A stretch of DNA of 64,000 bases from Parafilimonas sp. GTDB lineage: Bacteria; Bacteroidota; Bacteroidia; Chitinophagales; Chitinophagaceae. The translations under genes were made by a program, and so were the position numbers. How positions within the stretch are numbered: position 1 is the stretch's first letter; every line of letters starts with the position of its first letter. Under the pieces are notes generated by a model. It was not told where the DNA came from. It made no database searches and saw only the letters and a program-made list of their open reading frames with translations. Shown here piece by piece: positions 8,394 to 36,286 of the stretch. The stretch is from positions 1,631 through 65,630 of the forward strand of contig NZ_JASGEX010000092.1 of the NCBI RefSeq assembly GCF_047606085.1. Direction: 5' to 3'.

Positions 8394-8424
8394 TTAAAAA
8401 AGGCTTGAAACAAGCCTTTTTTAA
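8394..8424. terminator. Bidirectional intrinsic terminator
   Basis: Perfect 14-bp arms TTAAAAAAGGCTTG-AAA-CAAGCCTTTTTTAA between convergent genes. Confidence 0.85.
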
Positions 8425-8445
8425 TTTGCAGGATTTTCAGATGCA

Positions 8446-9762
8446 TTACTTGAATGTATTGAAAAGCTCATCATATTTTTTGTACAAAGCATCATATTTA
8501 TCGTAATCGGCAGCATTACCGTCGAATTTGGTCCTGTCGCGTTTCCACAGGTATATCTGCGAAAGAAAATTAACGGTGTGGTTCAGGTTCGCGGTTTCAA
8601 GCTTTTCCCTGTCCTGTTTGGCGCTGAGAACGGCAAAGGCCTTTTCAAGCCATGCTGCTGATGTATCGGCGTATAACATTTGCTCTTTAGCTATGTCGTT
8701 ACGCTTGGCTTTTAATGCTGCCGATTCACCCGTATAGCCGTGATAACGGTCATCAAGCACTTCAAATGCATAATGATAATAATAACCGGCCCCAAATGCA
8801 TACAGGCCGTTAGCGCCATTGGTAGCATCGAATGCTTTACCATACGCCTGGGCAGCCGCTAATTTTAGCTGGACCTTCTGGGTGCTGTCAAGCCCGTTTA
8901 ACTGGGCAGAATCATTGGTGGCAAATGCTTCCCCGTATGCCACCAGTTTTTGTTCGTCCAGGCTTCCTGCCGATGATTCCTGCTGGTACTTTTGCAGAAG
9001 CTCAGTAAGGCTTGCATTGGCGGTCATGTTAGACATTTCATACTGCGACCAGGTGGAAGCGCTATCCGGGTAAACTTCTTTTGCAAGCGCAAGATATTTT
9101 TTAAAATCGTCATTGTCTTTTTTGTCCATGTAATATTGAATCAGGAACTGGTAGATGCTTGCATAATCTTCACCGGTTATTTTCAGGTCGGCCAGCCTTG
9201 AATAATATTTGGCGGCAGAATCAAGCTGTTTTGAATTTTGCGCGGCAACGCCGGTAAACAATACCATGGTTGTATCAATAGTAGAGGTTGACTGTGTCAG
9301 CTTATTATCAATCATCACCTGTCCCAGCCTTTCAGCTTTTGAAAAATATTTAAAAGCGCTATCCCAGGTTTTGGCTTTCCAGTAATCGTTGCCCCTTACT
9401 ATATACCCGTTATAAACACTGCTTAGCCCATTAACAAAATTGCCTTCCTTCATTTGTTTTAAGGAAGGGTCTAATTGCTGGTACTGGTAAAAAGCATCCA
9501 GGGAAACAGCATCGGCGTCAGGGCTTTGCGGGCCCATCGCAGAGTCGCCGTACAACTGTCCATATACATAGGATTTCCAGAGTAAGGCAGTTGGCTTTTC
9601 TTTATCTTTCAACTTGGGATCGGCCGTCCATTTATCCACCTGTTCTTTTGCTTTATCAAATTTCTTTTGCGACACATACAAGGCTATAACATCGCCATCC
9701 TGTGCCATAAGGTAACTGCTGAATGAAAATGAAAGCGCAATCAATAGAATTATTTTTTTCAT
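8446..9762 (-). CDS. TPR-like secreted protein
   Basis: MKKIILLIALS signal peptide (start moved to 9762), helical repeats; follows gyrA as commonly seen in Bacteroidota. Confidence 0.7.
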   Translation of the reverse strand: MKKIILLIALSFSFSSYLMAQDGDVIALYVSQKKFDKAKEQVDKWTADPKLKDKEKPTALLWKSYVYGQLYGDSAMGPQSPDADAVSLDAFYQYQQLDPSLKQMKEGNFVNGLSSVYNGYIVRGNDYWKAKTWDSAFKYFSKAERLGQVMIDNKLTQSTSTIDTTMVLFTGVAAQNSKQLDSAAKYYSRLADLKITGEDYASIYQFLIQYYMDKKDNDDFKKYLALAKEVYPDSASTWSQYEMSNMTANASLTELLQKYQQESSAGSLDEQKLVAYGEAFATNDSAQLNGLDSTQKVQLKLAAAQAYGKAFDATNGANGLYAFGAGYYYHYAFEVLDDRYHGYTGESAALKAKRNDIAKEQMLYADTSAAWLEKAFAVLSAKQDREKLETANLNHTVNFLSQIYLWKRDRTKFDGNAADYDKYDALYKKYDELFNTFK

Positions 9763-9892
9763 TGTTCTGTTTTTTAATTTTATATTAACCGATATTATAA
9801 TTAATGCTTTTATATATTTTTTAAACAACCAACATACCTTCCGGTTTATGGTTCACAATAAAGTGTAAACAGCTTTATTAAATATATCAAAT

Positions 9893-12514
9893 TTAGGCCG
9901 GCGCGTTTACATCATCACTATTCTTTTCATCATTATCCTCAGCCCCCTTATCAACATGCTCCTCTTTGCCGGTTGTTCCGGCGACGGATTCTTCACTGTG
10001 CTCTTCTGCTATATCATTTATTTCCGTCTCTTGCTCCTGTTCATCCAGTTTGGAAATAGCGGCTATTTCATCGCCTTCATCCAGCCGTATCAGTTTCACG
10101 CCCTGTGTGGCGCGGCCGGCCTCTTTAATATTGGCAACAGACGTTCTTAAAATAATGCCAGATTTACAAGTGATCAATAAGTCTTCCTTTTCCTGAACAT
10201 CAAGAATGCCCACAAGGCTGCCTGTTTTTTCTGTTATGTTGATGGTTTTTACGCCTTTTCCGCCTCTGTTGGTAATGCGGTATTCATCTACTTTTGTACG
10301 TTTTCCAAAACCTTTCTCACTCACCACAAGAACAGTTTTGCCGGTTTCGCTCCTCTCGACACAAATCATACCAATTACTTCATCGTTTGCATCCTCCACT
10401 TCAATTCCTCCCACGCCAATAGCGCCACGGCCGGTGGCCCTTACTTTTTCTTCGGGGAAACGAATGGCACGCCCGCTTTTTACTGCCATCATTATTTCAG
10501 AATTGCCATCAGTTAACCTGGCAGTAAGCAACTCGTCGCCTTCCAAAACAGTAATGGCATTTACACCGGTGGTTCTTGGCCTGCTGAAATCTTCCAGCAC
10601 TGTTTTTTTAATAACGCCTTTTTTGGTGCACAGCACGATGTTATGGCCCTGAACAAATTCTTTGTCATCAAGGTTTTTAACATTGATGATAGCCTTTACT
10701 TTATCGCCCGGTACCAACTGCACCATATTCTGAATAGCCCTGCCTTTGCCCTGCTTTTCTCCTTCAGGCACTTCATATACCTTAAGCCAGTAACATCTTC
10801 CCTGCTGGCTGAAGAACAACATGGTATCGTGCGTGGACGCTACAAACAAATGCTCTACATAGTCTTCTTCCCTCGTTTTGCTGCCTATGGCGCCGCGGCC
10901 GCCGCGGCGCTGCTGCCTGTATTCAGATGCACTGGTTCTTTTTATATAACCCAAATGGGAAATGGTTATTACCACATCTTCTTTTTCAATCAAATCTTCA
11001 ATGCGCATTTCATTGGCGAGGTATTGAATTTCCGTTTGCCTTGGCTTGCCGTATCTTTCTTTAACCTCAAGCAATTCTTTCTTTATAAGATCATAACGCA
11101 GTTCTTCGCTTGCCAGCAAGGTTTCCAGCGCAGCAATCTGCCTTTGCAATTCTTCATATTCCTCCTTAATCTTTTCACGCTCCATGCCCGTAAGACGCTG
11201 CAGCCTTAATTCGAGGATGGCCTTTGCCTGAACTTCATCCAGGCCCCAGCCTGCATGTATTAAATTGTCTTTTGCAATTTCAGGCGTGGAAGAATTTCTT
11301 ATTAAACGGATCACTTCATCCAGGTGATCGAGTGCAATTAAATAGCCGTTTAAAATATGCGCCCTTTCCCTGGCTTTGCGCAGTTCATAATTGGCGCGGC
11401 GTATCACCACCTCCATCCTGAAATCAATAAACTCGCTGATGAGTGCTTTTACATTTAAAGTCTTTGGCCTTCCCTTGCTTAAAGCAACATTATTAATGCC
11501 ATAGCTCGTTTGCAGTTCAGTAAACTTGTATAACTGGTTAATGATAACGGTGGCAACACCATCGCGTTTCAAATCAATAACAATACGGGTTCCTTCTTTC
11601 TTATTGCTTTCATTGTTTACATGCGCAATGCCTTCAATGGTTTTATCGTTCACCAACTGGCCGATGCGGTCGGTTAACGTATCGCGGTTTACCTGGTAAG
11701 GCACGGCTGTAATAATGATCTGTTCCCTGCCGCTTGCCTTTGTTTCCACATGGCATTTTCCGCGCAGCACTACCCTTCCGCGGCCGGTAAGCATGGCCTG
11801 CTGCACACCGTCCATTCCGTAAATAACGCCGCCCGTTGGAAAGTCCGGCGCCTTTACATATTTCATTAAATCTTCTGCTGAAATTTCTTTGTCATCAATA
11901 TGCGCAATACAGCCATCAATCACTTCAGATAAATTGTGCGGCATCATATTCGTGGCCATACCAACAGCGATACCGCTGGACCCGTTTACCAGCAACTGCG
12001 GGATGCGGGTGGGCAGCACAACCGGTTCTTCCAGCGAATCATCAAAGTTTAACTGGAAATCCACGGTTTCTTTTTCAATATCATCCAGCATGCTTTCGGC
12101 AAGGCGTTCCAGCCTTGCTTCTGTGTAACGCATGGCTGCCGGCGGGTCGCCATCGGGGCTGCCAAAGTTTCCCTGCTTATCCACAAGCGGGTGGTTCATG
12201 CTCCACTCCTGCCCCATTCTCACCAATGCATCATATACGGCGCCATCGCCATGCGGATGGTATTTACCCAGCACCTCCCCCACTATACGGGCGCATTTTT
12301 TATACGGGCGGTTATAGCTTAAACCCAGTTCATTCATAGCGTATAAAATGCGGCGATGCACCGGTTTAAAGCCATCCCGCACATCAGGCAGGGCACGGCC
12401 CACAATAACCGACATTGAATAATCAATGTAGGCCGTTTTCATTTGTTCCTCAATGTTTACCTGGATGACACGATCGTTATCTGCAGTTTCCTGCGGTAGT
12501 TGATTTTCTTCCAT
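9893..12514 (-). CDS. gyrA: DNA gyrase subunit A
   Basis: [15 protein letters not shown] catalytic Tyr, GyrA-box QRRGGRG, beta-pinwheel repeats, acidic tail. Confidence 0.97.
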
Positions 12515-23327: not shown

Positions 23328-24959
23328 TTACTTCTTTTCATCTAATCTGTCTAACCATTGCCTGGCAGTAATATCATCCTGCACGGTTGATTGCATTAAC
23401 AAGTTAGCGCCTTTGGGAATATTGAGCGGAAATACGCAACGGCTATAATAGTTCAGTTGCTTTAACGTGTTTTCATCGTTGGCAAATGCATATAAAAAGC
23501 CCAGTGTGGTTTTGGCGGGGAGATAATTTTTATCGCTCGCTTTAGTAAGCATCTCAAAAGCCTCATTGCAATCCAGCCGGTCATTCTTTCCCTGCAATGC
23601 AAGGTTGGCATACTGAAACATGGCCTGCGGGATTTCCTGCTGCGCCAATGTTTGGTAAATATCGAGCGCAGCGTCTTTATTATTGGCTTTTAATAAATCC
23701 CTTGCATTGTTTAACTGCTGCTGTTGCTGCGGTGTTATACGCGTTAAAGAATCAGTGAGCAATGTTCTTCCGGCAGTATCACGGATATTGTTTTTATGGT
23801 TTAACTGGATGGCATATATAAAGATGGCTGCTACGAACAAGCCGGCAAGTATCCATAAGAAAACTTTAGGCGCACTGCTTTTCTTCTTTTGTATAAGTAT
23901 ATCTTCCCCTGAAGTGGTTTGATAAGAGGTAACGGTTATTTTGCCGGAACGAAACTGCTGCAATTCATTTTGCAGGTTCCTGTTCTGTTCAAGCAGCTTA
24001 CGGTTTTCCTGCTGCAACAATCTGATCTGGTCTGAAGCTTCGCCTTTTGCAAAGAAAACACTGTTTCTCACAACAAAGTCATGCAAGGCCATGCCGCTTG
24101 CAAACCTGTTTTCAGGCTTCTTCTCAAGACAGCGATATACCATTGTAAACAGCCACTCCGGTATCAGCATTTCACTTTCTTTCTTCTCACTATTCCATGA
24201 TTCCGGCAGCGCCTTTCCACGCAGCGCAAAAATATTGGGCGGCGTATTTTCCATGTGCGCAAGCATTACGGCATTGCGGGATGTTTCGCCTTTATCTTTT
24301 AACGGAAAGGGAACAACGCCGGCAAGGAGCTCAAACATCACCACGCCAAAACTGTACACATCTGTTTCAAACAACATGCGGCCTTCATTTTGTTCAGGCG
24401 CCATAAATTCTATTGCGCCCGCATGGCGCAGGCTGGTGCGCCTGTCTTCATCGCTCATGATGGCCAGGCCAAAATCAAGTAAAACATAATTGCCGGTACG
24501 CACATTAAATTTTATATTATTGCTTTTTATGTCCCCATGCTTTACATTAAAGCGATGGCAATGCGCCAGAGCGCCGGATAACTGTTCTGCTACCTTCAAA
24601 CATTCTTTTATAGTAAAAACAGGGTCGTGTGGCAGCTTTAATAATTCTTCCAGGTCAGGCCCTTCAATAAATTCCATTTCAATGTATGGAAAATTGCCTG
24701 TTTCCGTTACGCCGGAGCTGACGAGCTTTACAACATTGGGGTTGGGCTGCTCATTCACTTTTTTTAATTTCTGTACTTCATTCTGAAAATGGGTAAAGTT
24801 TTTATCATCGGCTGTTTCACTGTAAATAGGCGTGGGCAACAGTTTAATGGCGGTGATAATTTCGCCCATGCGCCGGCCTTTATACACAGATCCCTGGCCG
24901 CCTGTTTTAAGGGCACCCATAGTTTCCAGGCCTGATGTTATCGTAAAAACTTTACTCAT
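23328..24959 (-). CDS. Membrane Ser/Thr (Hanks) protein kinase with periplasmic SEL1-like repeats
   Basis: GGQGSVY, AIK, HGDIKSNN, DFG, APE, DVYSFG; coiled coil; one TM; AMFQYA/AKTTLGFLY SEL1-like tail. Confidence 0.9.
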   Translation of the reverse strand: MSKVFTITSGLETMGALKTGGQGSVYKGRRMGEIITAIKLLPTPIYSETADDKNFTHFQNEVQKLKKVNEQPNPNVVKLVSSGVTETGNFPYIEMEFIEGPDLEELLKLPHDPVFTIKECLKVAEQLSGALAHCHRFNVKHGDIKSNNIKFNVRTGNYVLLDFGLAIMSDEDRRTSLRHAGAIEFMAPEQNEGRMLFETDVYSFGVVMFELLAGVVPFPLKDKGETSRNAVMLAHMENTPPNIFALRGKALPESWNSEKKESEMLIPEWLFTMVYRCLEKKPENRFASGMALHDFVVRNSVFFAKGEASDQIRLLQQENRKLLEQNRNLQNELQQFRSGKITVTSYQTTSGEDILIQKKKSSAPKVFLWILAGLFVAAIFIYAIQLNHKNNIRDTAGRTLLTDSLTRITPQQQQQLNNARDLLKANNKDAALDIYQTLAQQEIPQAMFQYANLALQGKNDRLDCNEAFEMLTKASDKNYLPAKTTLGFLYAFANDENTLKQLNYYSRCVFPLNIPKGANLLMQSTVQDDITARQWLDRLDEKK

Positions 24960-25111
24960 TAATGTACCGGATAAACATTTATTTTAAACTATACAAAACG
25001 GCTTCAGCCTGCTAATAATACAAATATTTTCTTTGGCATACATGTTCATGCCAGACGATTTTTATTTTTATTCATACAATTGCGCTACGCTTTGTGCCGG
25101 GCGGTTGCTAC

Positions 25112-25420
25112 CGGTCTGACGCTTTGAAGCGTCTGACCGCGTTCCTGCTCTGCGAAGTCTCCTGACCATAGCTGTTCGAAACTATTTTCTTAAAGCCTCA
25201 CAGAGGCTTAATGTGTGTACAATGCTGCCCGTAATGTTTCTTTACCGTTCCATTGGAACGGAACGTTTACGCGCTCCACACCTACGGTGTGGAATCCCCC
25301 CTGGCACAATTATTTCCACACACGTGGGCGATTCTATGGATCGCGGATCGCTAATGCAGGTTTCGAACACTTGTGGTGCCCGGACTTCACAAGCCTTATG
25401 CGCGAAGTCTCCAACTTCAC
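25112..25420. repeat. Mosaic of at least five different REP-like hairpins
   Basis: Hairpins at 25112-25139, 25193-25209, 25245-25261, 25275-25293 and 25402-25420; GCGAAGTCTCC repeated at 25152 and 25402. Confidence 0.75.
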
Positions 25421-25436
25421 ATAAACACATCGTTCA

Positions 25437-26207
25437 TTATTCCGAATAACTAAACTCCAGCAATGCCGATTCACCCAAAATCACCTGGTCGCCTTCTTTT
25501 AAATGATAACCCACTTCCGTAGTGATCAGTTTTACTTCTGCGCCTTTTTCAGGTTTCACTTTCACTTTATTTGCCGGCGGAATGCCGCCTTCATCTGCAT
25601 ATAAAAAAAATGCGCCAAGCTCTTCATTCCACTCAATATGCGCATGCCGGCGGCTGATGGATTTATTGCTCTTGTTGCTGCTGCTGTCAGTAAAAGCGAT
25701 GTGGTTCTGGCGCAAATAACCATCGGCAACCTGCACATTTTTTTCACGGCCGATATTAATTTTTTTACCGGATGATGTAAGCGTGTAAACGGCCTGCTCC
25801 GCTTCACCATTCAATACCTTCAGGTAGGCAATTGCTTCCCGCCTGATAGCAGGCCGCTGCCGGGTTGATATAAATATAGCAGCATCAAGGCTTGCAGATT
25901 GTATAGCTTCCGGCGGCACCTCTTCCTCACAAAAAACCTGGAACTGCCAGCCTGTATGGAGGCTGATATCAAAATCATCGGCTATGCGCTGTATTTCTTC
26001 TCTAAACTGTTCGGTATCGTTTATATATACAGCGCTCTCGTATAAAAATTTATCCTGCGCATGGCAGTTGATATATAAATGCATGCCTTTAATATCGGCG
26101 CCTTCGCCTTCTGCTTTTTTTAATTGATCTTTAATAAAATCAAGCAGGTCGCTCCTTAATGTTTTTACATCTTTGGGCTGTTTGTCTTTTTTTAAGAAGC
26201 TAAGCAT
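25437..26207 (-). CDS. FHA domain protein
   Basis: Canonical IGR ... SISRRHAHI ... N motifs in the C-terminal half. Confidence 0.88.
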   Translation of the reverse strand: MLSFLKKDKQPKDVKTLRSDLLDFIKDQLKKAEGEGADIKGMHLYINCHAQDKFLYESAVYINDTEQFREEIQRIADDFDISLHTGWQFQVFCEEEVPPEAIQSASLDAAIFISTRQRPAIRREAIAYLKVLNGEAEQAVYTLTSSGKKINIGREKNVQVADGYLRQNHIAFTDSSSNKSNKSISRRHAHIEWNEELGAFFLYADEGGIPPANKVKVKPEKGAEVKLITTEVGYHLKEGDQVILGESALLEFSYSE

Positions 26208-26218
26208 ATTATCATTAT

Positions 26219-29200
26219 TTATTGTTGATTATTTGTATTGGGCTGATCACGGTTAACCGCAAGTTGTTGCTTTGCTATAACCGGCTCTTTCTTCACCGGT
26301 TTCTTTTTATCTTCTCCAAAACCTTTTATATAACCCATCTGTTCTAATACAGGAACAACATGTTTACCGGCAAGCTTAACCGCCACGCTTGAGCCCTGGC
26401 AGCTTTCAATGCGCACACAAACCACTATGTTACCACTGTCTTTTGGATTAGGTGCGAAGAAAACGTAAAGGCCATCGTTCACCCTTTCATTTTTCACAAT
26501 ACGCTCCGGTGTGCCTGTTTTGCCGGCAACGCTTATTCCCAATTTTGAAACTTTAGGAAGGCTTTGCTCGATCATATATTTTGTCATCAGCTTCGATGCA
26601 GAATCATTCGTTAACTCAATGCCCGGCGCCAGCTTTGTTTGTTTACCGCTTACTTTTAAAACATAACGGCTTTGCATCATCGTGCCGTTATTGGCAATAC
26701 CAGATGCCACACGGGCTACGGCGGCAGGTGTGGCAATTAACTCTCCCTGCCCCCAGGCCATGCCCGAAATGCCTTTACCTCTTGTTCTCCTGATGTTAGA
26801 GGGGTTATACGTTTTTAAACTGGCAAACTCGGTTTTACGCCATATATTTTTCCATGCCTCTTCCTGTTTTTTATTATTCATGTCATAATCATAATAATAG
26901 CCGCCAACGCCATGCAAAAACATGCCTGATTTCAAATACAGGTCGCCCATGTATTCCTGCAACTGCGATTCATTGGCAAGCCGTATAAAAAATGAATTAT
27001 TTGATCTTACAATAGCACGTTCAATATTTATATTACCCGCTTCATCAGGCTCATAACCTTTGGTACGTATAAGGTCTGCGGGATATACCTTAATAATTTT
27101 TTTTGCAGCAGCGAGGCCTAATTTATTAAATGCGGCAAGCGCCGTAACAAGCTTCGCCGTTGAACCAGGCTGCGATGCTATGGTGAAGCCAATATCGTTA
27201 TCTGTAATCCAGCCTGGCAGTTCATTTTGCTGCTGTGGGGAAAGATTAAGCTGATCCCAGTCGTTCACAGGCGGCAGGGGGTAATTGGCTGAAGCCAGCA
27301 CATCGCCGGTTTTATCTTCCATCACCACAACGGAAACCCGGTTGTTCACCAGCGAATCGTCGCTTTGCAATGATTGCTGTATCCTTGTTTGCAGGGCGGC
27401 ATCAAGCGTTAAATGCACATCGCGGTTTTTATTTTTGAATGCATCCACAGCAGCGCTGTTTATACCGGCAATTAATAAGGGCGCCAATGCGCTATAATCT
27501 TTCTTTTCCACACTCATCTCCGTTGATGTTTCCGGCAGAAAACGTTGCTCATGAAAACGTGTTGCACTTACGGAGAAACTGTTTTTGGGAACAGGGAAAC
27601 CACGCATCTCAGCCGCTTCGCAGTATTCGGCAAAATAACCATTGGATGCGCCATTGAATACATTGGTATTGGCATCGCCCGTCCAGAAAAACATTTGTGC
27701 GCCGAAAGGATAATAACGATCCTGCCGTTTATAAAACATGGCATTAATATCTTCTTCCGGTATGTTCAGGGCCAGCAAAGAATCGCGTTGTGTATTGATT
27801 AAATCCTGGTGGCTGGTGGCCAGTATGCGGCCATTCCTGTCCAACAAATTACCGGCCTGCAGCCTGTTCATTAAGATGCTGATGCGCGGGTTATAACTGA
27901 ACATTCTTGCGCCGCTCCTGTCTGCTACCAATGCCGGCTGCACAATCCACTGCGTATTATTGAATAAATATTTTGAGACGCTCACGCCAAGCAGTACAAT
28001 GCCCGCACATGCGGCCATTAATGCGGGCATAAGGTTTTTATCCTGTTGCTGCGATATAAATTTCATTTGCACAGGCGAGCCCTGCACCGTTGAGGCAGAT
28101 AATAAAAATCCTGCTGCCAGCATATTGACTATTAATGACGAGCCGCCATAACTCATGAACGGCAGGGCCACACCCGATAAAGGCAGGGCGCCCACTGACC
28201 CTCCTGCAATCAGCAAAAACTGAACAAAGGTGGCAATACCGATTCCCGAGCATATATAAAATAAAAACGGCCGTCCCGAATGCCGGCCTATAACAATGGA
28301 ACGGTGCAGATAAATGAAAAACACAATGAACACGCTTATAATTCCCATGAAGCCAAACTCCTCTCCCATGGCCGGCAATATCATATCTGTATGCGCTTCC
28401 GGGATTGTTTTAGCAAACCCCTCTCCTGCGCCCTGCCCGGTTACGCCGCCGCTTGACATGGCCCAGATTCCGTTTGCAATCTGGTCGCCGCCAAACACTT
28501 CATTATTCCATGGATCCTGCCAGATAGCTTTACGATCAATTAACCTTTCCATAGGCCCGGGAAAATATTGTGCGATCAATGGTATTGTATCCAGCAGCAA
28601 AAATGCTGCAATAACCACCAAAGCCATCACAGACGATTCGCTTAATTTCTTTGTAACCGCCAACGTGTAGATAACAAAAAATACAGCGGTAACAGCCGTA
28701 GCTGTTAATACATTATCCAGTAACCAAACAGCGAGCACATAAAATAATACAGATATAATTATATGCAAAAAATCGCCCCTCGAAAAAGAAAATAAAATAA
28801 TAAAGGTGAAACAGCAAACCATGGCCGGGCCTAAATCGCCCAGCATTAAAAAGAGAAATATGGTTGCGAGTATGGCAACTAATGCAAACACAAAGAACCG
28901 GCTTCGCTTTGTCCAGGTAAAATAAGAAGAAATAAATTTTTCATTGGTGGCAAAGAAACCGGCAAGGAAAAATACAATAACAAATTTTACAATTTCACTT
29001 GGCTGAAAACCAAAGAGATTTACTTTAACGCCGCTGCCTTCAGGGCCGGTACCAAACATCAATGTCATGGCAAGCAGGCCTGATGCGATAACAGCCCAGG
29101 GCCATCCGTTTGAAGCAAGCTTCATTTTGCTGAAAACAAATAAGCGATAGCGTTTTGAATCGGTTGTAAAACGCTTTAGATCGAATAATAACAACAGGAT

Positions 29201-30367
29201 CATCCCAAGAATGCCGGCAATAAAATAGCCGGTTGTATTTCTTGCCAGGAACCAGTCGCGCAAGGGATCCTGCAGGCTAAACAAGGTTATAAAAGATAAA
29301 CCGGTAATCACCATTACGGCCGGAAGTATTAGCTGGTCAGCATGTTTAAACCACACGCTCATAATTATATGCAATAAGAGAAATCCTGCAATAAAAGAAA
29401 TGGAGATGATCCAGAACCATTGCATTACTTCATCCGGGGTTCTTACAATAAACGCTTTTTCTTTTTTTAATGAACTGAAATCTTTTGTTGAAAAAAGTTT
29501 TAAGCGATGCGGTGAACGGTAGAAATTAAACGATGCATCATGGTCTAATTTTTCTATGCCCTGCGCATAACCGAAAGCATAATTCATTTGCAGCGGAAGC
29601 ACCTGGTAGGTTTTGTTGTCCGGAAGGTTTTTGAAAGAGAAACGGCCCTTTGCATCTGTTTGTGTATAGGCAATCAACGATTGCAGCTGTTTATTGTTTA
29701 ATGAATCAACGGCATAGGTTTTTCTTACCGTGATGGTACTCTGCTGCAGCATGCTGTCAATCTCTTCCACGGTATTGCTGTATAAACTATCCTGCGGTAA
29801 AACCAGTTGCAGACGAACAATAACATTTGGCACAGCAGCGCCCGCCTCCTGTATTAACCCGTTAATGCTATGGCTGCCTGCATGCAGATCGTTAACTGAA
29901 TTAATGGCGGAAGCATTTTTCTGCTGCCATGCAAACAGCGCACTGTCTTTACCGGTTATGCCCAGGGCCATTCTTTCGCTCCTTACTCTTTTCTTAAAAG
30001 ATTCGCCGCCCTGCGCCAGGGCTGTTTCTGCGGGAACACTGTATTGTTTTTTATTGAGATCGCCTATATTATCTATTGCAACGCTGTCTGCCAGCCTGGA
30101 CTTTTCAAAAGTTGAACTAATCAGGTTAATATCTTTTTCATCGCTGAAGTAACGGCCCTTTTGCAGCAGCATTTGCATGTTCCTGGCATAGTGTGCATCA
30201 TTCAGGTTAATCATTGTGCCATTTTTCACACGTTCCGGAACGTCTTTAAAACCGGCATGTATAACCAGGTACATTTTATAAAAAAGCACAGCCATTACCG
30301 CAGCTATCAGCAGCAAGAAAATTCTTTCCGTATTCCTGTTTATATGCGGGCCTGCTTTTGCATTCAT
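26219..30367 (-). CDS. SEDS glycosyltransferase (RodA/FtsW) fused to class B penicillin-binding transpeptidase
   Basis: FQPSEIVK, GDLG, AHTDM..GEEFG, LPFMSYGGSS; then GSTAK (SxxK), SNN (SxN), KTG. Confidence 0.92.
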   Translation of the reverse strand: MNAKAGPHINRNTERIFLLLIAAVMAVLFYKMYLVIHAGFKDVPERVKNGTMINLNDAHYARNMQMLLQKGRYFSDEKDINLISSTFEKSRLADSVAIDNIGDLNKKQYSVPAETALAQGGESFKKRVRSERMALGITGKDSALFAWQQKNASAINSVNDLHAGSHSINGLIQEAGAAVPNVIVRLQLVLPQDSLYSNTVEEIDSMLQQSTITVRKTYAVDSLNNKQLQSLIAYTQTDAKGRFSFKNLPDNKTYQVLPLQMNYAFGYAQGIEKLDHDASFNFYRSPHRLKLFSTKDFSSLKKEKAFIVRTPDEVMQWFWIISISFIAGFLLLHIIMSVWFKHADQLILPAVMVITGLSFITLFSLQDPLRDWFLARNTTGYFIAGILGMILLLLFDLKRFTTDSKRYRLFVFSKMKLASNGWPWAVIASGLLAMTLMFGTGPEGSGVKVNLFGFQPSEIVKFVIVFFLAGFFATNEKFISSYFTWTKRSRFFVFALVAILATIFLFLMLGDLGPAMVCCFTFIILFSFSRGDFLHIIISVLFYVLAVWLLDNVLTATAVTAVFFVIYTLAVTKKLSESSVMALVVIAAFLLLDTIPLIAQYFPGPMERLIDRKAIWQDPWNNEVFGGDQIANGIWAMSSGGVTGQGAGEGFAKTIPEAHTDMILPAMGEEFGFMGIISVFIVFFIYLHRSIVIGRHSGRPFLFYICSGIGIATFVQFLLIAGGSVGALPLSGVALPFMSYGGSSLIVNMLAAGFLLSASTVQGSPVQMKFISQQQDKNLMPALMAACAGIVLLGVSVSKYLFNNTQWIVQPALVADRSGARMFSYNPRISILMNRLQAGNLLDRNGRILATSHQDLINTQRDSLLALNIPEEDINAMFYKRQDRYYPFGAQMFFWTGDANTNVFNGASNGYFAEYCEAAEMRGFPVPKNSFSVSATRFHEQRFLPETSTEMSVEKKDYSALAPLLIAGINSAAVDAFKNKNRDVHLTLDAALQTRIQQSLQSDDSLVNNRVSVVVMEDKTGDVLASANYPLPPVNDWDQLNLSPQQQNELPGWITDNDIGFTIASQPGSTAKLVTALAAFNKLGLAAAKKIIKVYPADLIRTKGYEPDEAGNINIERAIVRSNNSFFIRLANESQLQEYMGDLYLKSGMFLHGVGGYYYDYDMNNKKQEEAWKNIWRKTEFASLKTYNPSNIRRTRGKGISGMAWGQGELIATPAAVARVASGIANNGTMMQSRYVLKVSGKQTKLAPGIELTNDSASKLMTKYMIEQSLPKVSKLGISVAGKTGTPERIVKNERVNDGLYVFFAPNPKDSGNIVVCVRIESCQGSSVAVKLAGKHVVPVLEQMGYIKGFGEDKKKPVKKEPVIAKQQLAVNRDQPNTNNQQ

Positions 30368-31791
30368 CTTTCGTGAACAATGGTTTTAGCGGAATCAATT
30401 TTTAATAAAGCGCTGTCTGAAATAACGCCGGATACATATATATCACCGGGCAGGCTTACAGCATACAAAACAGGCGCAATACAGTTTTTAAACCGTACAT
30501 CTTTTAAATGCACAGACGTATTGCGGGCAATGAATGCTGTATTAAAGCTTTGAAATGTTATACTGTCGAGCAGCACATATTTGCATTGCGGGAAGAAAAT
30601 AAAAGCTGCTTCGTTATAACCTGAATCGGCAACGAATGTGGCATTATTGCCGTGAATAATCAGCGTATCTGCCTTTATAAGCAATGAATCGTTTATAACG
30701 ATTTTAGGGTTATTGCCAAAAAGGGTTCTTAATGAAATAATATTTGATTTCGAGTTCCTTATGCTGTCTGATAATTGTACAACCTGGCTGTTTCTTGCAA
30801 CCGCAGGTTCATCTGCAATAACGGTTTGTGTATTATCTTTTATAAAATAATCCTTGTAAATAAACCAGGCAAGCGCAGCGAGCAGCAGCAGGAAAAGCAC
30901 TATCAAAAAACGAGCGCCTGCGCCGCTGCTTTTCTTAACCGCCACTTCCTTCTGAATGTATTCCACGCGCTGTGGTTCTGTAATTACTTCCTCCGCACCT
31001 GCCTTCTTTACAACGGGCCTGGTTGCTTCATACTGTGAAGGCGATTTATCATTCTTAATTAAAACAACGGTTATATTATCTTTTCCGCCGGCAAGATTGG
31101 CGGCATCAATTAAAGCGGCAGATTTTTCTTTCAGGCTGTGCGATGAACTTAAAATGCCGGCGATGGTGCGGCTGTTAATCATATCATACAGGCCATCGCT
31201 GCAGAGCAATAAAGTATCACCCGGCAAAAAAGGTGATTCGCCTGTTTCAATATAATCTGATTCCAAAAATTTTTCTTCATCAAAGCCCAATGCTTTATTG
31301 ATTTCATTTCGTTTGGGATGGCTCATCGCGGCTTCTTCCGTTAAGCGGCCGCTTTCCTCCAAAAAGCCGACAAAGGAATGATCATGCGTAACCTTTACCA
31401 GCGAGTTATCACGAAAGAGATATAATCTTGTATCGCCCACATGCGCGTAATAAAATTTGTTTTCATTTATATCAGCCAGTGCAAGCGTTACCACGCAAGC
31501 CATTTGGGCATGTTCCGCGCTTGTTTGTTTTTTTTCAACAATCTTTTTACTTGCCCCGGCCATTGCGGTTTTCAGTATATCAATTATATCGCCCGAAGCG
31601 TTTTTTAATGTATTAAGAATAGCTGTACGGGCAAGCGCTGCCGCCACTTCACCGCCTTCATATCCGCCCACACCGTCAATAACACAGCCAACAATATATT
31701 TATCATGTACGATCGTCTGGGCAATAAAGTTATCTTCATTATTGTCGCGCATTTTGCCTGTATCCGTATTGCCGTAAAAGTTATCAGCCAT
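30364..31791 (-). CDS. PP2C/PstP-like Ser/Thr phosphatase with TM and periplasmic beta-helix-like domain
   Basis: RDNNED, DGVGG, VGDTR, CSDGL, GGKDNIT; one TM. Confidence 0.92.
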   Translation of the reverse strand: MADNFYGNTDTGKMRDNNEDNFIAQTIVHDKYIVGCVIDGVGGYEGGEVAAALARTAILNTLKNASGDIIDILKTAMAGASKKIVEKKQTSAEHAQMACVVTLALADINENKFYYAHVGDTRLYLFRDNSLVKVTHDHSFVGFLEESGRLTEEAAMSHPKRNEINKALGFDEEKFLESDYIETGESPFLPGDTLLLCSDGLYDMINSRTIAGILSSSHSLKEKSAALIDAANLAGGKDNITVVLIKNDKSPSQYEATRPVVKKAGAEEVITEPQRVEYIQKEVAVKKSSGAGARFLIVLFLLLLAALAWFIYKDYFIKDNTQTVIADEPAVARNSQVVQLSDSIRNSKSNIISLRTLFGNNPKIVINDSLLIKADTLIIHGNNATFVADSGYNEAAFIFFPQCKYVLLDSITFQSFNTAFIARNTSVHLKDVRFKNCIAPVLYAVSLPGDIYVSGVISDSALLKIDSAKTIVHER

Positions 31792-31910: not shown

Positions 31911-32095
31911 TCGTCAAACGTGAATCGTCAAACGTGAATGTAACAATGTTCATTTTTTTATATTCCCAATTGATATTTATACTTCGAATTATCAAATTAC
32001 TTTAAACAGACTGCCTTCAACACCTAAAATATTTTGACTGCTGCATTCCAAAAAACCTTTCAGGGTTTTCACGTTTGACGATTGACGTTTCACGT
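31911..32095. repeat. Inverted heptamer arrays (TCGTCAA/ACGTGAA)x2 ... TTCACGT/TTGACGA/TTGACGT/TTCACGT around a 129-bp spacer
   Basis: 32068-32081 is the exact reverse complement of the 14-mer repeated at 31911 and 31925. Confidence 0.8.
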
Positions 32096-33049
32096 TCATG
32101 ATTTAAAAATATTCACGCCCACAATACCATTCAGCACAATACGTGAATTAAGCGGCAACGGAACCCATACCGGGTTATCCATATCGCTCGCCACTACTTC
32201 ATTTTCATTCACCAGCGTTTTTTCCCCAAAAGAAGCGAGATAAAATTTATGGTCATCCTTATTAAATTTCACGCGCAAATGCGGCGTATTCACCCATTCT
32301 GACGGTATGCGGAAAATATCTTCCTTATCAGCAGCTTCATCCTTACCTGAAATAAGCACATCCGGTTCGCGCATGTAATATTCAATTTTTTTCCCTGCAA
32401 ATTCTTTATCAGGCACAATCGTCTCAAACCTTGCAAGGAGCTTAGGCGCACCGTTTTTTACAACTGTATCCTGCATGCGGAAATGCGGGTTGTAAGCAAT
32501 TTCATAATAGCCGTCGCTGTAAAAGATAAAGCCATCCAGTAATTCGGGGTTTACATCAAAGGTTTCCGCAATACCCGTTTGCCTTGGAATGAAAGTAACG
32601 CGCACACTTTCTTTTTTCTGCTGCAGGCTGCCTGGCATTAGTTTGCCGATTACACTTTTATCGCCGGGCAAATATTCAGGATGCGCTGCAAAACGAAACA
32701 CCCATTTATTGGAAGCCGGCGCTACTATTTTTCCTTCATTGTGGCAGCGTTCGAGAATATTGTAAAACTGTTTTATACATTCCTGTACAATCAGCCCGAA
32801 AATGCCTTTTTTATTTTGCGCGAACTGGTTGTAATCATCTTCATTAAAACACACGATGTATTCATGAAAGAAAACAACGCGGTTAGCGAATGAGAGCTCT
32901 TTTATGGAATCTTCAAATCGCTGAACAATATATTTATATACATCAGCAGCAGTAAGCGGCTGCGTTTGTTTTACATTATAGGTTGCTTCACGTTTAAGGA
33001 ACCATTCGTGAAAGCCCATGCGCTGCCAGAAAGAAGTTTTAGTTTTCAT
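32096..33049 (-). CDS. FhaA-like protein: DUF3662-like N-domain plus degenerate FHA-like C-domain
   Basis: FFHEYIVCFNEDDY resembles the FhaA N-domain; the C-terminal beta-rich region lacks canonical GR/SxxH; operon context. Confidence 0.55.
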   Translation of the reverse strand: MKTKTSFWQRMGFHEWFLKREATYNVKQTQPLTAADVYKYIVQRFEDSIKELSFANRVVFFHEYIVCFNEDDYNQFAQNKKGIFGLIVQECIKQFYNILERCHNEGKIVAPASNKWVFRFAAHPEYLPGDKSVIGKLMPGSLQQKKESVRVTFIPRQTGIAETFDVNPELLDGFIFYSDGYYEIAYNPHFRMQDTVVKNGAPKLLARFETIVPDKEFAGKKIEYYMREPDVLISGKDEAADKEDIFRIPSEWVNTPHLRVKFNKDDHKFYLASFGEKTLVNENEVVASDMDNPVWVPLPLNSRIVLNGIVGVNIFKS

Positions 33050-33670: not shown

Positions 33671-36286
33671 TCATCTTATTAAAACAAAAGTGCCCTTTTT
33701 AAAGTAAGGCTTGTTATTATAATCTGTTGCCGCCACAACGTAAACGTAAGTGCCGCTTGGTTGTTTATTGCCATTGTATGTGCCATCCCAGCCTTTGTTT
33801 GGCGTTCCGGTATTGAAAAGCAACTGGCCCCAGCGGTTATAAATTCTCAGGTAGGAAAACTGTTTCATCCCGGCAACTGTTATTTTATATACATCGTTCA
33901 CACCATCTCCATTGGGTGTAAAAGCTGTGGGTATAAATACTTCGGGGCCTGTTTCAAAAATATATATCTTAATGCTGTCGTAACTGTAGCAGCCTTCCGG
34001 CGTGCTTACCTTCACGCTGTATGTAACCGTATCGGGCCCGTCTGTAAATGTTGCAACCGGATTGGCTATAAACGGATTGCTTAAATTAGATGAGGGTGAC
34101 CATTCATAATTGGTGCCGCCTGTTGCATTAAGCTGCAATGGCTGCTGCCTTACAATAACCGTATCGTTACCGGCATCAGCAATTACTTTTGGAATAACGG
34201 TTACCACAACCGAATCGCTTACAGGTTTGGGGCAGCCAATTGTATCTGTTACCGACAGCACATACGTTGTTGTTGATTGCGGCCCGGCAATGGGCGATAA
34301 ACTTTCCGGATTAATAAGCGAGCTTACCGGCGCCCATGAAAAGACGGAGCCTTCAATGCTTGCATTCAACTGGGTTGTATTACCATAACAAATACTTACA
34401 TCGCTGCCGGCATCAGCAGTGGGATATGGCGCTACCGTTACGTTCATTGCATCTGTGGCCGTGCATTTTCCTACAGAAGCCGTAAGCGTATATTGTGTGC
34501 TTGACAAAGGAGCAGCCATGGGCGCCTTTGTGGTATCGCTGCTTAAGCCGTCTGCCGGCTGCCACAAAAAGTAAAGTGCATTGGTTGATGGCGTAATCTG
34601 TATGCTGTCGGTTTTACAGATAGCCGTATCGGCAGGCAGTTCCAGCAATACTTTATCAATAACATTCACGGTAACCGAGTCTTCTGCTTCGCAACCTTTA
34701 TAATTTACCGTGAGATTATAGACAGTGGTTTGTTTTGGGTAAACATAAGGATTGGCGGTATTGGCATCAATTATATTATATGCCGGCAGCCAGCTAAATG
34801 TGGCGCCGGCTGTGGTGGAAGATGCATTCAGCCTTAGCGTGTCAATGCTGCAGATAAGCGTATCCCTGAAGCCGAGAGATACATCGGGACCGGTGCTAAC
34901 ATCAAGCGCTTTGGTAGCAGTGTCTATGCAACCTTTGGAACTGGTTGAGATCAATGTTATTGTTTTTTGCCCGGTATCTGTATAATTATAAACAGGGTTT
35001 TGGATGGTATCGTCCAATGTGCCGGTTTCGCCAAAATACCATTTCCATGAATCCACATAACCATATTTTGTGGTGGTGAGGTCTGTGAAATTGTATGGAT
35101 TGAAGATGCAACTGCCATCAATGGAAAAATCTGTGGCAAAGCCCGGGTAAATTTTCACTTCCGTTTCTGCGGAATCTTCGCAGCCGGCCGTGTTTTGCGC
35201 TTTTAGTTTAACCGTGTAAACGCCTGTATCAGGATAAGTATAGGTGGGCTGCGCTTCTGATGAAGTATCTGTGGTTAAAGTGGTAACGCCAAAATCCCAG
35301 AAATATGTATAGTCAGCGCTTGTGCCTGCCCCATTCACAAAGGTAAAATCAAAGCCATCGCAGGATATATAGGAAGAATCTAACCGGGCCCCGCCTGTTT
35401 TACAGTTAGAAACCTCAAGGTGCAATTCTTTTCTTGTATGCCCGATGTAAACACCGTTCCGGTATTCGTCAATGCAAACGGCAGCTACATAGGTGCCTGT
35501 GGTTGCAGGGGCGGTGCCGGAAAATATGCCGGTTGCCGGATCAATGGAAGCGGCCGAGCCAAGCGGCTGGGAACCTGAATACGGAGATGTATAGGAAATA
35601 GAACTGTATGGCGGCGCCGGGGGATCTTCTACTACGGGCTCTAACTCGGTGCCCCCGGTTAAGCCGCTGCATAATGAATATACGAGGGAATCGCCGTCTA
35701 TATCTTCCGCAGAAAAATCGAAGGAGAAAGGCGAGCTTACGCAAATGGCAGAAGCATCATTGAAGCTAAATACCGGGCTGTTATCCTCACTGTTGCTTCC
35801 GCCCGGTATGCTTAGGGTATAAGTTAGCCCAACTGTATTGGACGAAGGCACATTTTCAATGCCGGAAATGCGGCAGCACCGCTGCACCGTAAGCACATAA
35901 CCGCTTTCGTTTTCGGGAACGCCAATGGTGGTAGTATATACAGCCACAAGATAACATACATCGGGCGGGTTTTGAAAGCAGGGCCCGAAATCGCTTTTTG
36001 ATTCTTTAGACAAGCTTGTTTCAGCAACGTATTTAACCATTAAGGAAGACGTGGAATTACCGGCAAATACGGCAAGATAAATACCTGCATCCACCTTTTC
36101 GGCCTGGTCGCAATCAGAATACTGATAAAAGGAAATTTTGTAATTAAGCGTGCTGCCTGTTTTACCGGTATAGGTATATTTCATCCAGCCGCCTTTAAGA
36201 TGATCTGCATAGGATTTTTGTGCTGATAATAAACATACCAATACAAACAATAACTTAAAAATATGTAAATGCCTATGCCACGTCAT
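33671..36286 (-). CDS. PKD-domain surface protein with T9SS type B (gliding-motility-associated) C-terminal domain
   Basis: PKD WDFG/WYFG repeats; FIPTAFTPNGDGVND, IYNRWG, WDG, GTYVY, KGTFVLIR. Confidence 0.92.
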   Translation of the reverse strand: MTWHRHLHIFKLLFVLVCLLSAQKSYADHLKGGWMKYTYTGKTGSTLNYKISFYQYSDCDQAEKVDAGIYLAVFAGNSTSSLMVKYVAETSLSKESKSDFGPCFQNPPDVCYLVAVYTTTIGVPENESGYVLTVQRCCRISGIENVPSSNTVGLTYTLSIPGGSNSEDNSPVFSFNDASAICVSSPFSFDFSAEDIDGDSLVYSLCSGLTGGTELEPVVEDPPAPPYSSISYTSPYSGSQPLGSAASIDPATGIFSGTAPATTGTYVAAVCIDEYRNGVYIGHTRKELHLEVSNCKTGGARLDSSYISCDGFDFTFVNGAGTSADYTYFWDFGVTTLTTDTSSEAQPTYTYPDTGVYTVKLKAQNTAGCEDSAETEVKIYPGFATDFSIDGSCIFNPYNFTDLTTTKYGYVDSWKWYFGETGTLDDTIQNPVYNYTDTGQKTITLISTSSKGCIDTATKALDVSTGPDVSLGFRDTLICSIDTLRLNASSTTAGATFSWLPAYNIIDANTANPYVYPKQTTVYNLTVNYKGCEAEDSVTVNVIDKVLLELPADTAICKTDSIQITPSTNALYFLWQPADGLSSDTTKAPMAAPLSSTQYTLTASVGKCTATDAMNVTVAPYPTADAGSDVSICYGNTTQLNASIEGSVFSWAPVSSLINPESLSPIAGPQSTTTYVLSVTDTIGCPKPVSDSVVVTVIPKVIADAGNDTVIVRQQPLQLNATGGTNYEWSPSSNLSNPFIANPVATFTDGPDTVTYSVKVSTPEGCYSYDSIKIYIFETGPEVFIPTAFTPNGDGVNDVYKITVAGMKQFSYLRIYNRWGQLLFNTGTPNKGWDGTYNGNKQPSGTYVYVVAATDYNNKPYFKKGTFVLIR

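Follow-up and report, generated by a model that had tools for sequence, protein, structure and literature searches.

The 64,000-nucleotide stretch of Parafilimonas sp. DNA analyzed here (contig NZ_JASGEX010000092.1, positions 1,631 to 65,630; the window, below) encodes on its minus strand a protein of 1382 amino acids in which a SEDS (FtsW/RodA/SpoVE) glycosyltransferase and a class B penicillin-binding protein (PBP) form one chain, referred to here as the fusion. Its gene is part of a module with a conserved gene order: orf317, a PP2C-type phosphatase, the fusion, an FHA-domain protein and a Ser/Thr kinase. The protein parts of the fusion are, from the N-terminus, a membrane helix (TM0a), a family-specific domain (N-domain), a second membrane helix (TM0b), the SEDS domain, a linker with the PBP anchor helix, a pedestal-like module, the transpeptidase domain and a tail. 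Coordinates are given in Table 1.

A natural single-chain SEDS and class B PBP protein

The gene of the fusion, 26219..30367, is a single unbroken open reading frame (ORF) with an ATG start, in agreement with the 1382-residue protein that the original prediction, made from the sequence alone, had placed there. Pfam identifies in it both PF01098 (FTSW_RODA_SPOVE; score 160.9 bits, cut-off 26.4, E 5.6e-47) and PF00905 (Transpeptidase; residues 1012-1332, score 87 bits, cut-off 22.1, E 1.7e-24), and finds no match in the protein to PF00912 (GT51), the domain by which a class A PBP would be recognized. The proposal that SEDS and class B PBP occur here in one ORF, without the GT51 domain of a class A PBP, is thereby borne out, and the fusion is a natural single-chain protein of this kind. 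NCBIfam models for ftsW, rodA and PBP2 match as well, all with scores far under their equivalog cut-offs (85 bits for the PBP2/MrdA model), so the fusion belongs to both families and is the orthologue of neither housekeeping enzyme.

The first 345 residues are not SEDS-like. Beyond them the Pfam SEDS model matches in two stretches, model positions 16-191 (residues 350-548) and 137-352 (residues 536-760). Because these are complementary halves of one model, they represent one interrupted SEDS domain rather than two in tandem. Both characteristic motifs can be read, QPSE..K (E458/K461) and PEAHTD (D661). HMMER alignments to solved structures place PEAHTD(661) opposite PEAHTD of Pseudomonas aeruginosa FtsW and PERHTD of Escherichia coli RodA; over a longer span, PEAHTD(661)MILPAMGEEFG pairs with PEAHTDFVFAVLAEELG and PERHTDFIFAVLAEELG in the solved FtsW and RodA structures. 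In SEDS proteins the catalytic Asp of the PE-x-HTD motif lies at the boundary of extracellular loop 4 and transmembrane helix 8; it is D262 in E. coli RodA and D255 in Thermus thermophilus RodA.

The canonical SEDS core has ten membrane helices. Structures were predicted with AlphaFold2 (AF2) as two partial models, residues 1-345 and 300-1382, each from an alignment of 73 sequences and sharing only the TM0b segment. The predicted SEDS core has 12 helices, the usual ten and a two-helix insert between SEDS helices 6 and 7. From the QPSE helix to the large outer loop the model has five helices, where E. coli RodA presumably has three, and helix 7 of E. coli RodA falls at residues 583-601 of the fusion by structure alignment. 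The insert is therefore placed, as a two-helix hairpin, at about residues 532-574. Since the number of inserted helices is even, the SEDS topology would be preserved. The housekeeping RodA of the same genome (451 residues) apparently has the same two-helix hairpin by alignment, which suggests that SEDS proteins of Bacteroidota in general may have 12 membrane helices, not 10.

A short cytoplasmic linker, about residues 762-778, leads from the SEDS domain to the anchor helix of the PBP part. The transpeptidase domain shows the expected motifs S1069-T-A-K1072 (SxxK), S1122-N-N1124 (SxN) and K1283-T-G1285 (KTG), and its structural and PDB matches, by profile search and by Foldseek, include PBP2a, PBP5 and PBP3. 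Between anchor and transpeptidase, two boxes, AGNLLDRNGRILA (residues 838-850) and RYYPFG (residues 884-889), are invariant or nearly so in the deep family, and RYYPF aligns with RDYPF of the PBP2 from the same genome. The conserved boxes of class B PBPs are RGxIxDRNG, RxYPxG and GxxGxE, as reportedly defined by Goffin and Ghuysen (1998). Alignments to PBP3 found by Foldseek extend over 560-590 columns, more than the transpeptidase domain would cover by itself; the profile-to-PDB sequence matches of the PBP part begin only at about residue 969. We consider a divergent class B pedestal likely in residues 803-1009. A special kinship of the PBP part with actinobacterial PbpA was considered and rejected: at 38-39 bits, PBPA of M. 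tuberculosis does not stand out among the PBPs.

The non-membrane stretch ahead of the SEDS helices measures about 270-275 residues (40-310). It had been described as some 290 residues of soluble sequence, without mention of the two extra membrane helices, TM0a and TM0b, that bracket it, and it proves to be a real folded domain, with a predicted local distance difference test score (pLDDT) of 89. The AF2 model divides it into a helical subdomain, residues 43-150, and a beta-sandwich resembling transthyretin and CarboxypepD_reg, residues 158-290. Recognition of a carboxypeptidase-regulatory-like beta segment in the motif TDAKGRFSF was correct: of 73 orthologues, 67 are matched by PF13620 (CarboxypepD_reg; E down to 1e-7), the fusion's own match being sub-threshold (E 0.003-0.005), and at E values of about 2e-4 Foldseek likens the predicted beta-sandwich to the SpaA pilin C-terminal domain and the carboxypeptidase D/N accessory domain. 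The helical half has no Pfam match when E values up to 10 are admitted, nor any match specific to it among the 50 top Foldseek hits listed. Its INLN and IDNIG segments are reminiscent by eye of a helix-hairpin-helix, an assignment that found no support. A profile built from residues 1-345 matches 854 proteins at E up to 0.001 in a search of 1.84 billion representative proteins; the strong matches are nearly all N-terminal in fusions of 1200-1550 residues, and the short ones resemble contig fragments.

SEDS proteins begin and end in the cytoplasm. TM0b lies five residues before SEDS helix 1, so the N-domain should be across the membrane, with the first ten residues of the protein in the cytoplasm. 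PP2C domains of the family in question act in the cytoplasm, and certain relatives described below carry such a domain fused ahead of TM0a, which likewise puts the N-terminus inside the cell. Topology and relatives thus both support the periplasmic location originally suggested for the N-terminal region, and we infer that the N-domain is periplasmic, where it would lie beside the pedestal and transpeptidase domains. The proposed topology has about 15 predicted membrane helices in total and a cytoplasmic N-terminus.

A word-indexed protein search returned 1099 homologues. The best 120 of these are mostly 1340-1440 residues long, and all have both domains; sources include Parafilimonas (90% identity), Segetibacter, Ferruginibacter and Flavisolibacter. 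When each species was represented by a single genome, 469 genomes were found to encode a relative, in Chitinophagaceae, Sphingobacteriaceae and Spirosoma. The best 80 of the loci come from Chitinophagaceae and Sphingobacteriaceae (Mucilaginibacter, Pedobacter), with 58-90% identity at full length. One full-length unbroken ORF of at least 1330 residues is present in 73 of the 80, and the others end at contig edges or start later. The unbroken frame is seen in several genera, including in complete chromosomes. A member from Spirosoma (Cytophagales) has 1321 residues, and an orthologue from a metagenome-assembled Pedobacter genome (L079; 1372 residues by first-ATG call) is 58% identical over its full length. 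The fusion, checked in homologs as called for at the outset, is therefore conserved.

Across 54 members at 27-60% identity, Q455, T660-D661, S1069, K1072, S1122, N1124, K1283 and G1285 are invariant, and conservation at E458 and K461 is 90% or higher. Retention of catalytic residues over such deep divergence favours a working enzyme over a binding-only relic. Distribution is uneven. The N-domain occurs in 7 of 401 evenly sampled Bacteroidota genomes, representing 5 of 180 genera, and in the family of the host one other sampled genome has it while at least 20 do not. The fusion family is common in several soil genera of Bacteroidota and patchy overall.

Gene module, family variants and other synthases of the genome

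The order orf317, PP2C, fusion, FHA, Ser/Thr kinase was established by tblastn searches of the 80 loci with the neighbouring proteins. Any one neighbour is found at 68-75 of them; most absences are at loci that run into a contig end, although a few full-length loci lack one match. Some Mucilaginibacter genomes have the kinase gene shifted upstream. The genes of the window are tightly spaced around the fusion: the TGA stop of the PP2C gene overlaps the ATG of the fusion (ATGA), and 11 nucleotides separate the fusion stop from the start of the FHA gene.

Table 1. Coordinates of the module, of the parts of the fusion and of related loci in other sequences. Counts of syntenic loci are out of 80.
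Feature	Sequence	Position	Strand	Fusion residues	Basis
orf317, 317-residue conserved partner, head of module	window	32096..33049	-		syntenic in 71/80 loci
Inverted repeat in the orf317-PP2C gap	window	31912..32094 (arms 31912-31938, 32068-32094)			repeat search
Membrane PP2C Ser/Thr phosphatase, 475 residues	window	30364..31791	-		Pfam PP2C_2/PP2C; NCBIfam Stp1/IreP, E 3.5e-60; syntenic in 75/80
Cytoplasmic N-terminus	window		-	1-10	hydropathy, AF2
TM0a, extra N-terminal membrane helix, cytoplasm to periplasm	window	30251..30337	-	11-39	hydropathy; AF2 helix 11-39
N-domain, family-specific, inferred periplasmic	window	29438..30250	-	40-310	AF2 pLDDT 89.1, Foldseek, PF13620
TM0b, second extra membrane helix, chain back to cytoplasm	window	29351..29437	-	311-339	hydropathy, AF2
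Single SEDS (FtsW/RodA/SpoVE) domain with two-helix insertion	window	28082..29335	-	345-762	Pfam, NCBIfam, structure alignment
Cytoplasmic linker and PBP anchor helix	window	27962..28075	-	765-802	hydropathy peak 779-797; AF2 helix 765-802
Pedestal-like non-catalytic module	window	27341..27961	-	803-1009	box motifs; AF2 confidence low to moderate
Transpeptidase domain	window	26333..27340	-	1010-1345	PF00905; confident AF2 model; PDB and Foldseek matches
C-terminal tail and stop codon	window	26219..26332	-	1346-1382	low complexity; pLDDT <50; poorly conserved in alignments
FHA-domain protein, 256 residues	window	25437..26207	-		Pfam FHA, 22 bits against cut-off 20.7; syntenic in 74/80
Hanks-type Ser/Thr kinase, 543 residues	window	23328..24959	-		Pfam Pkinase, E 1.8e-33; syntenic in 68/80
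Triple-fusion gene	loci L102-L104	6001-11040
Distant 1221-residue member	locus L101 (G040:C31)	7808-11473
Neighbours of the distant member	locus L101	11579-12448, 12942-14126
Housekeeping FtsW	locus L001	1372-2742
Housekeeping RodA	locus L002	336-1691

The PP2C protein has its cytoplasmic domain at residues 9-248, a helix at about 295-312 and a C-terminal region of about 160 residues (315-475) that is predicted to be extracytoplasmic. This last region has no family match and shows short repeated beta-strand-like segments by eye. In the FHA protein, the phosphothreonine-binding residues G153-R154, S185-R186-x-H188 and N213 are invariant in 16 orthologues. The kinase, in whose translation the usual Hanks-type motifs are read, consists of a kinase domain (residues 18-293), a coiled region, a helix (about 375-395) and a tail (396-543) predicted to be extracytoplasmic, with weak Sel1/TPR matches and no PASTA domain found. 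It is one of only two Hanks-type kinases in the genome. The extracytoplasmic C-terminal domains of the PP2C protein and the kinase are candidate sensors.

orf317 holds the position that FhaA has in the actinobacterial operon discussed below, and the likeness of its C-terminus to FHA is no more than faint. Its assignment as an FHA or FhaA_N protein was rejected, as hhalign comparison with the FHA partner and with a true FhaA-like protein gave about 2% probability. The gap between orf317 and the PP2C gene is 304 nucleotides and holds an inverted repeat, whose 27-nucleotide arms are 93% complementary, lie 129 nucleotides apart and consist of tandem 7-nucleotide units of the TCGTCAA/ACGTGAA type (7/14-nucleotide periods). 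The gap between the FHA and kinase genes, 24960-25436, is unusually long at 477 nucleotides and dense in short hairpins with tiny loops, for example at 25112-25139 (13-nucleotide arms, 2-nucleotide loop), 25245-25261 and 25275-25293; it could uncouple expression of the kinase from that of the rest of the operon. A gene close upstream of the module (33671-36286) encodes an 871-residue protein that has PKD repeats and carries a type IX secretion signal, CHU_C, which confirms that the host belongs to Bacteroidota. A 153-residue upstream lipoprotein occurs mainly in close relatives, at 25 of the 80 loci, in some of them displaced. No mreBCD or rlmH genes were seen near the fusion, nor any MreC/MreD or FtsQLB-type activator genes in the neighbourhood.

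In three separate clusters at 50% identity, with proteins of 1679, 1684 and 1772 residues (P0192, P0246, P0269), a PP2C domain directly precedes TM0a. The order in one chain is PP2C, membrane helix, N-domain, membrane helix, SEDS, class B PBP. Several contigs, independent of one another and as long as 95 kb, bear these triple fusions, and covalent attachment of PP2C to the synthase indicates that the phosphatase is functionally tied to it. At the triple-fusion loci a kinase gene follows, an FHA gene is found further downstream, and genes for a Sel1-repeat protein and a monofunctional GT51 protein are nearby. The proteins that flank the triple fusion were compared with orf317 and the FHA protein as possible homologues; the matches are not significant, the positions alone are analogous, and the FHA domain of the locus sits in the different gene further downstream. 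A more distant member, of 1221 residues and from another class of Bacteroidota, is preceded by a 289-residue protein of FhaA_N+FHA architecture (the FhaA_N match being just under the Pfam cut-off) and faces a gene for an RlpA-like lytic transglycosylase with DPBB and SPOR domains.

The genome has the usual synthases in addition. On contig C104 the gene of a housekeeping FtsW is flanked by murD and murG and has that of FtsI in its vicinity; on contig C156 a housekeeping RodA directly adjoins PBP2. There is also an 851-residue class A PBP together with a monofunctional GT51 protein, GT51 domains being found on contigs C88, C212 and C198. Because separate FtsW and FtsI, RodA and PBP2, and a class A PBP are all present, the fusion is a third, accessory SEDS-class B PBP unit and not a housekeeping enzyme, a point that the original prediction did not include. 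The housekeeping FtsW reads LPQAYNDSIY where other SEDS proteins read PEAHTDFIF; the Asp is kept, and the His and Thr are replaced.

Proposed function and its alternatives

We consider it probable, at roughly 70%, that the fusion is a functional, self-contained accessory peptidoglycan synthase linked to phospho-signalling. As far as sequence and predicted structure can tell, the main points of the original prediction hold. In the proposed mechanism, the SEDS polymerase is joined to the class B PBP through its cytoplasmic C-terminus and the membrane anchor of the PBP, and the fusion would polymerize and cross-link lipid II by itself. Its gene would be co-transcribed, and partly translationally coupled, with those for the kinase, the PP2C phosphatase, the FHA protein and orf317. 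An envelope signal sensed outside the cytoplasm would set the balance of kinase and phosphatase, and phosphothreonine marks read by the FHA protein would switch or localize the synthase. By analogy, such phospho-control would work as in the mycobacterial FhaA/FhaB-PstP-RodA-PbpA-PknA/B system.

A bolder version would make the fusion a fully self-sufficient third synthase that uses no activator in trans: the N-domain would act in cis at the pedestal or at the active-site region of SEDS, in the role of MreC or FtsQLB, and activity would be gated by reversible Thr phosphorylation through a dedicated kinase, with the PP2C protein docked. We offer this only tentatively, with the odds clearly against it. 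If it were true, the triple fusions would be phosphatase, polymerase and transpeptidase in one chain.

Several points weigh against the reading as an accessory synthase under phospho-control. In the pedestal region (residues 803-1030), PF03717 (PBP_dimer) and PF21922 find no match even at E up to 10. The AF2 models of the N-domain and of the transpeptidase domain are confident, and the pedestal is poorly predicted. With neither a Pfam pedestal nor a strong model of one, productive coupling of SEDS and PBP is putative. The model of residues 300-1382 as a whole is moderate only (pLDDT 71.7; predicted template modelling score 0.56). orf317 has no Pfam match, and its profile has no PDB sequence match. 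No phospho-acceptor site was identified in the fusion; a candidate for such a site or for FHA docking, the cytoplasmic FTTDS loop at residues 400-404, is invariant in close relatives but was dropped, as it is not conserved in the deep family. The distant 1221-residue member has no PP2C or kinase gene nearby, so phospho-control would not extend to every member.

The fusion might instead serve as a beta-lactam-insensitive back-up, a low-affinity transpeptidase hard-wired to its own polymerase and switched by kinase and phosphatase upon PBP inhibition or wall damage, comparable to PBP2a or to PBP5 under IreK/IreP-type control in Firmicutes. This is a narrower form of the explanation preferred here, and an unlikely one. 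It would fit the transpeptidase, whose top-scoring PDB sequences are the low-affinity PBP2a (MecA) and Enterococcus PBP5, the NCBIfam matches to the MecA family (all far under their cut-offs), the best family of the phosphatase, Stp1/IreP, and hosts that are soil bacteria keeping their normal synthases. The PBP2a and PBP5 scores, however, are low, 38-60 bits, of the same order as those of the other PBPs listed, and the NCBIfam PBP2/MrdA model scores higher; beta-lactam affinity is unreadable from sequence, and no resistance-gene context was seen. Less probable still is a role as sensor or scaffold, in which the PBP-like and N-terminal domains bind wall fragments or antibiotics and inform the kinase, phosphatase and FHA protein, with little or no output as a synthase. 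The tight linkage to signalling genes, with covalent fusion to a phosphatase in some lineages, would suit such a role, as would the additional periplasmic domain, whose fold is of a binding type, and the full synthase set already in the genome. A pure binding module would nevertheless not be expected to keep every residue of both chemistries, the SEDS Asp and the SxxK, SxN and KTG motifs among them, invariant over deep divergence. The complete 12-helix SEDS body is retained too.

That RodA and PBP2 have merged here into the main elongation (Rod) synthase is very improbable. The RodA and PBP2 family models do match the fusion, and a published survey ties the giant proteins to elongation (PMC12516126), but a separate RodA adjoins a separate PBP2 on contig C156, most Bacteroidota, even in the same family, are without the fusion, and mreBCD and rlmH are missing from its vicinity. 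As for an assembly or gene-calling artefact that joined two adjacent genes, nothing speaks for it except the prior expectation of separate genes, as is usual for SEDS and class B PBP. Conservation across hundreds of genomes answers the objection that homologs might be split: the same unbroken frame at 73 of 80 independent loci, complete chromosomes included, and the 1099 homologues of the protein search leave this explanation a negligible chance.

Relation to known systems

Mining of InterPro has yielded 117 proteins with SEDS and transpeptidase domains (PMC12516126, Microlife 2025). Among them the same study describes from Pedobacter ginsengisoli a "giant chimeric" FtsW/RodA/SpoVE-transpeptidase protein of 1341 residues, with Ser/Thr kinase and phosphatase genes flanking it (PMC12516126, section 21, Fig. 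7C); the giant chimera is termed rare, with two tandem GTase domains, no pedestal and a function unknown (PMC12516126). Like the fusion, it is a Bacteroidota protein of about 1340-1380 residues with SEDS and transpeptidase parts, in a host that keeps FtsW/FtsI and RodA/MrdA. The fusion in turn shows the marks of the giant chimera in exceeding 1300 residues, in having PP2C and kinase neighbours and in the retained FtsW/FtsI and RodA/MrdA of its genome. Matched by size, phylum and gene context, the P. ginsengisoli protein very probably belongs to the fusion family.

Since the family was catalogued in silico in 2025 (PMC12516126), the novelty of the fusion is below that assumed in the original prediction. 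The description given there differs from our findings in several respects. In place of two tandem GTase domains, the fusion has one SEDS model with an insert; its class B pedestal boxes are present; and 469 species representatives have a relative. The N-terminal periplasmic domain, the FHA partners and the PP2C triple fusions are undescribed in that survey (PMC12516126). What the present analysis adds or corrects is thus the single SEDS domain with its insert, the periplasmic N-domain between two helices, the pedestal boxes, the commonness and patchiness of the family, and the triple fusions with PP2C. For an FHA-PP2C-FtsW-PBP cluster in Bacteroidetes, a literature search turned up no functional work.

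The closest parallel in gene content is the actinobacterial fhaA-fhaB-pstP-rodA-pbpA-pknA-pknB operon (M. tuberculosis Rv0020c-Rv0014c), which has co-linear genes for FHA proteins, a membrane PP2C phosphatase, a SEDS protein, a class B PBP and Hanks-type kinases in nearly the same order. The FhaA_N+FHA architecture of the protein preceding the distant family member adds to the likeness. The differences are that SEDS and PBP form one polypeptide here, with an extra periplasmic domain, that the kinase is without PASTA domains, that PBPA_dimer (PF21922) is not detected in the fusion, and that orf317 has no FhaA_N or FHA match. The actinobacterial pair, moreover, is the RodA/PbpA of the cell, whereas the fusion gives its Gram-negative host a pair beyond the usual ones. 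By analogy the module may work like the actinobacterial one, with no common descent implied.

With the RodA-PBP2 and FtsW-FtsI complexes (6PL5, 8TJ3, 8BH1) the fusion shares the same two catalytic modules and motifs, and the join, from the cytoplasmic C-terminus of SEDS to the anchor helix of the PBP, is topologically compatible with these structures. It differs from them in the covalent linkage, the two extra N-terminal helices with the N-domain, and the two-helix SEDS insertion. SEDS-PBPA_dimer-transpeptidase fusions are known from Coriobacteriia and Actinomycetota, such as those of Senegalimassilia faecalis (931 residues) and Rhodococcus jostii (947 residues) (PMC12516126). They too have SEDS followed by transpeptidase in one chain, and some have genes for a Ser/Thr kinase and a phosphatase on their flanks. 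They are about 400 residues shorter, however, lack the N-terminal periplasmic domain, have a pedestal or PBPA_dimer that Pfam recognizes, and belong to another phylum. PDB entries 4OVD and 4MNR, presumably from fusions of this type, score 42-49 bits against the profile of the fusion family.

SEDS-class B PBP pairs are core machines of bacterial wall building and major antibiotic targets, and their study is hampered because two membrane proteins and their activators need to be co-purified. As discovery, the present result is limited, the fusion family having been noted in silico in 2025 and being no surprise to specialists since. A synthase of one chain, with a fixed 1:1 stoichiometry, would nonetheless suit structural and enzymological work, and this one comes with a periplasmic accessory domain built in, joined in some lineages by a phosphatase. 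To our knowledge, control of wall synthesis by Ser/Thr phosphorylation is established almost only in Actinobacteria and Firmicutes. The module of the fusion would offer a rare chance to study such control in a Gram-negative lineage.

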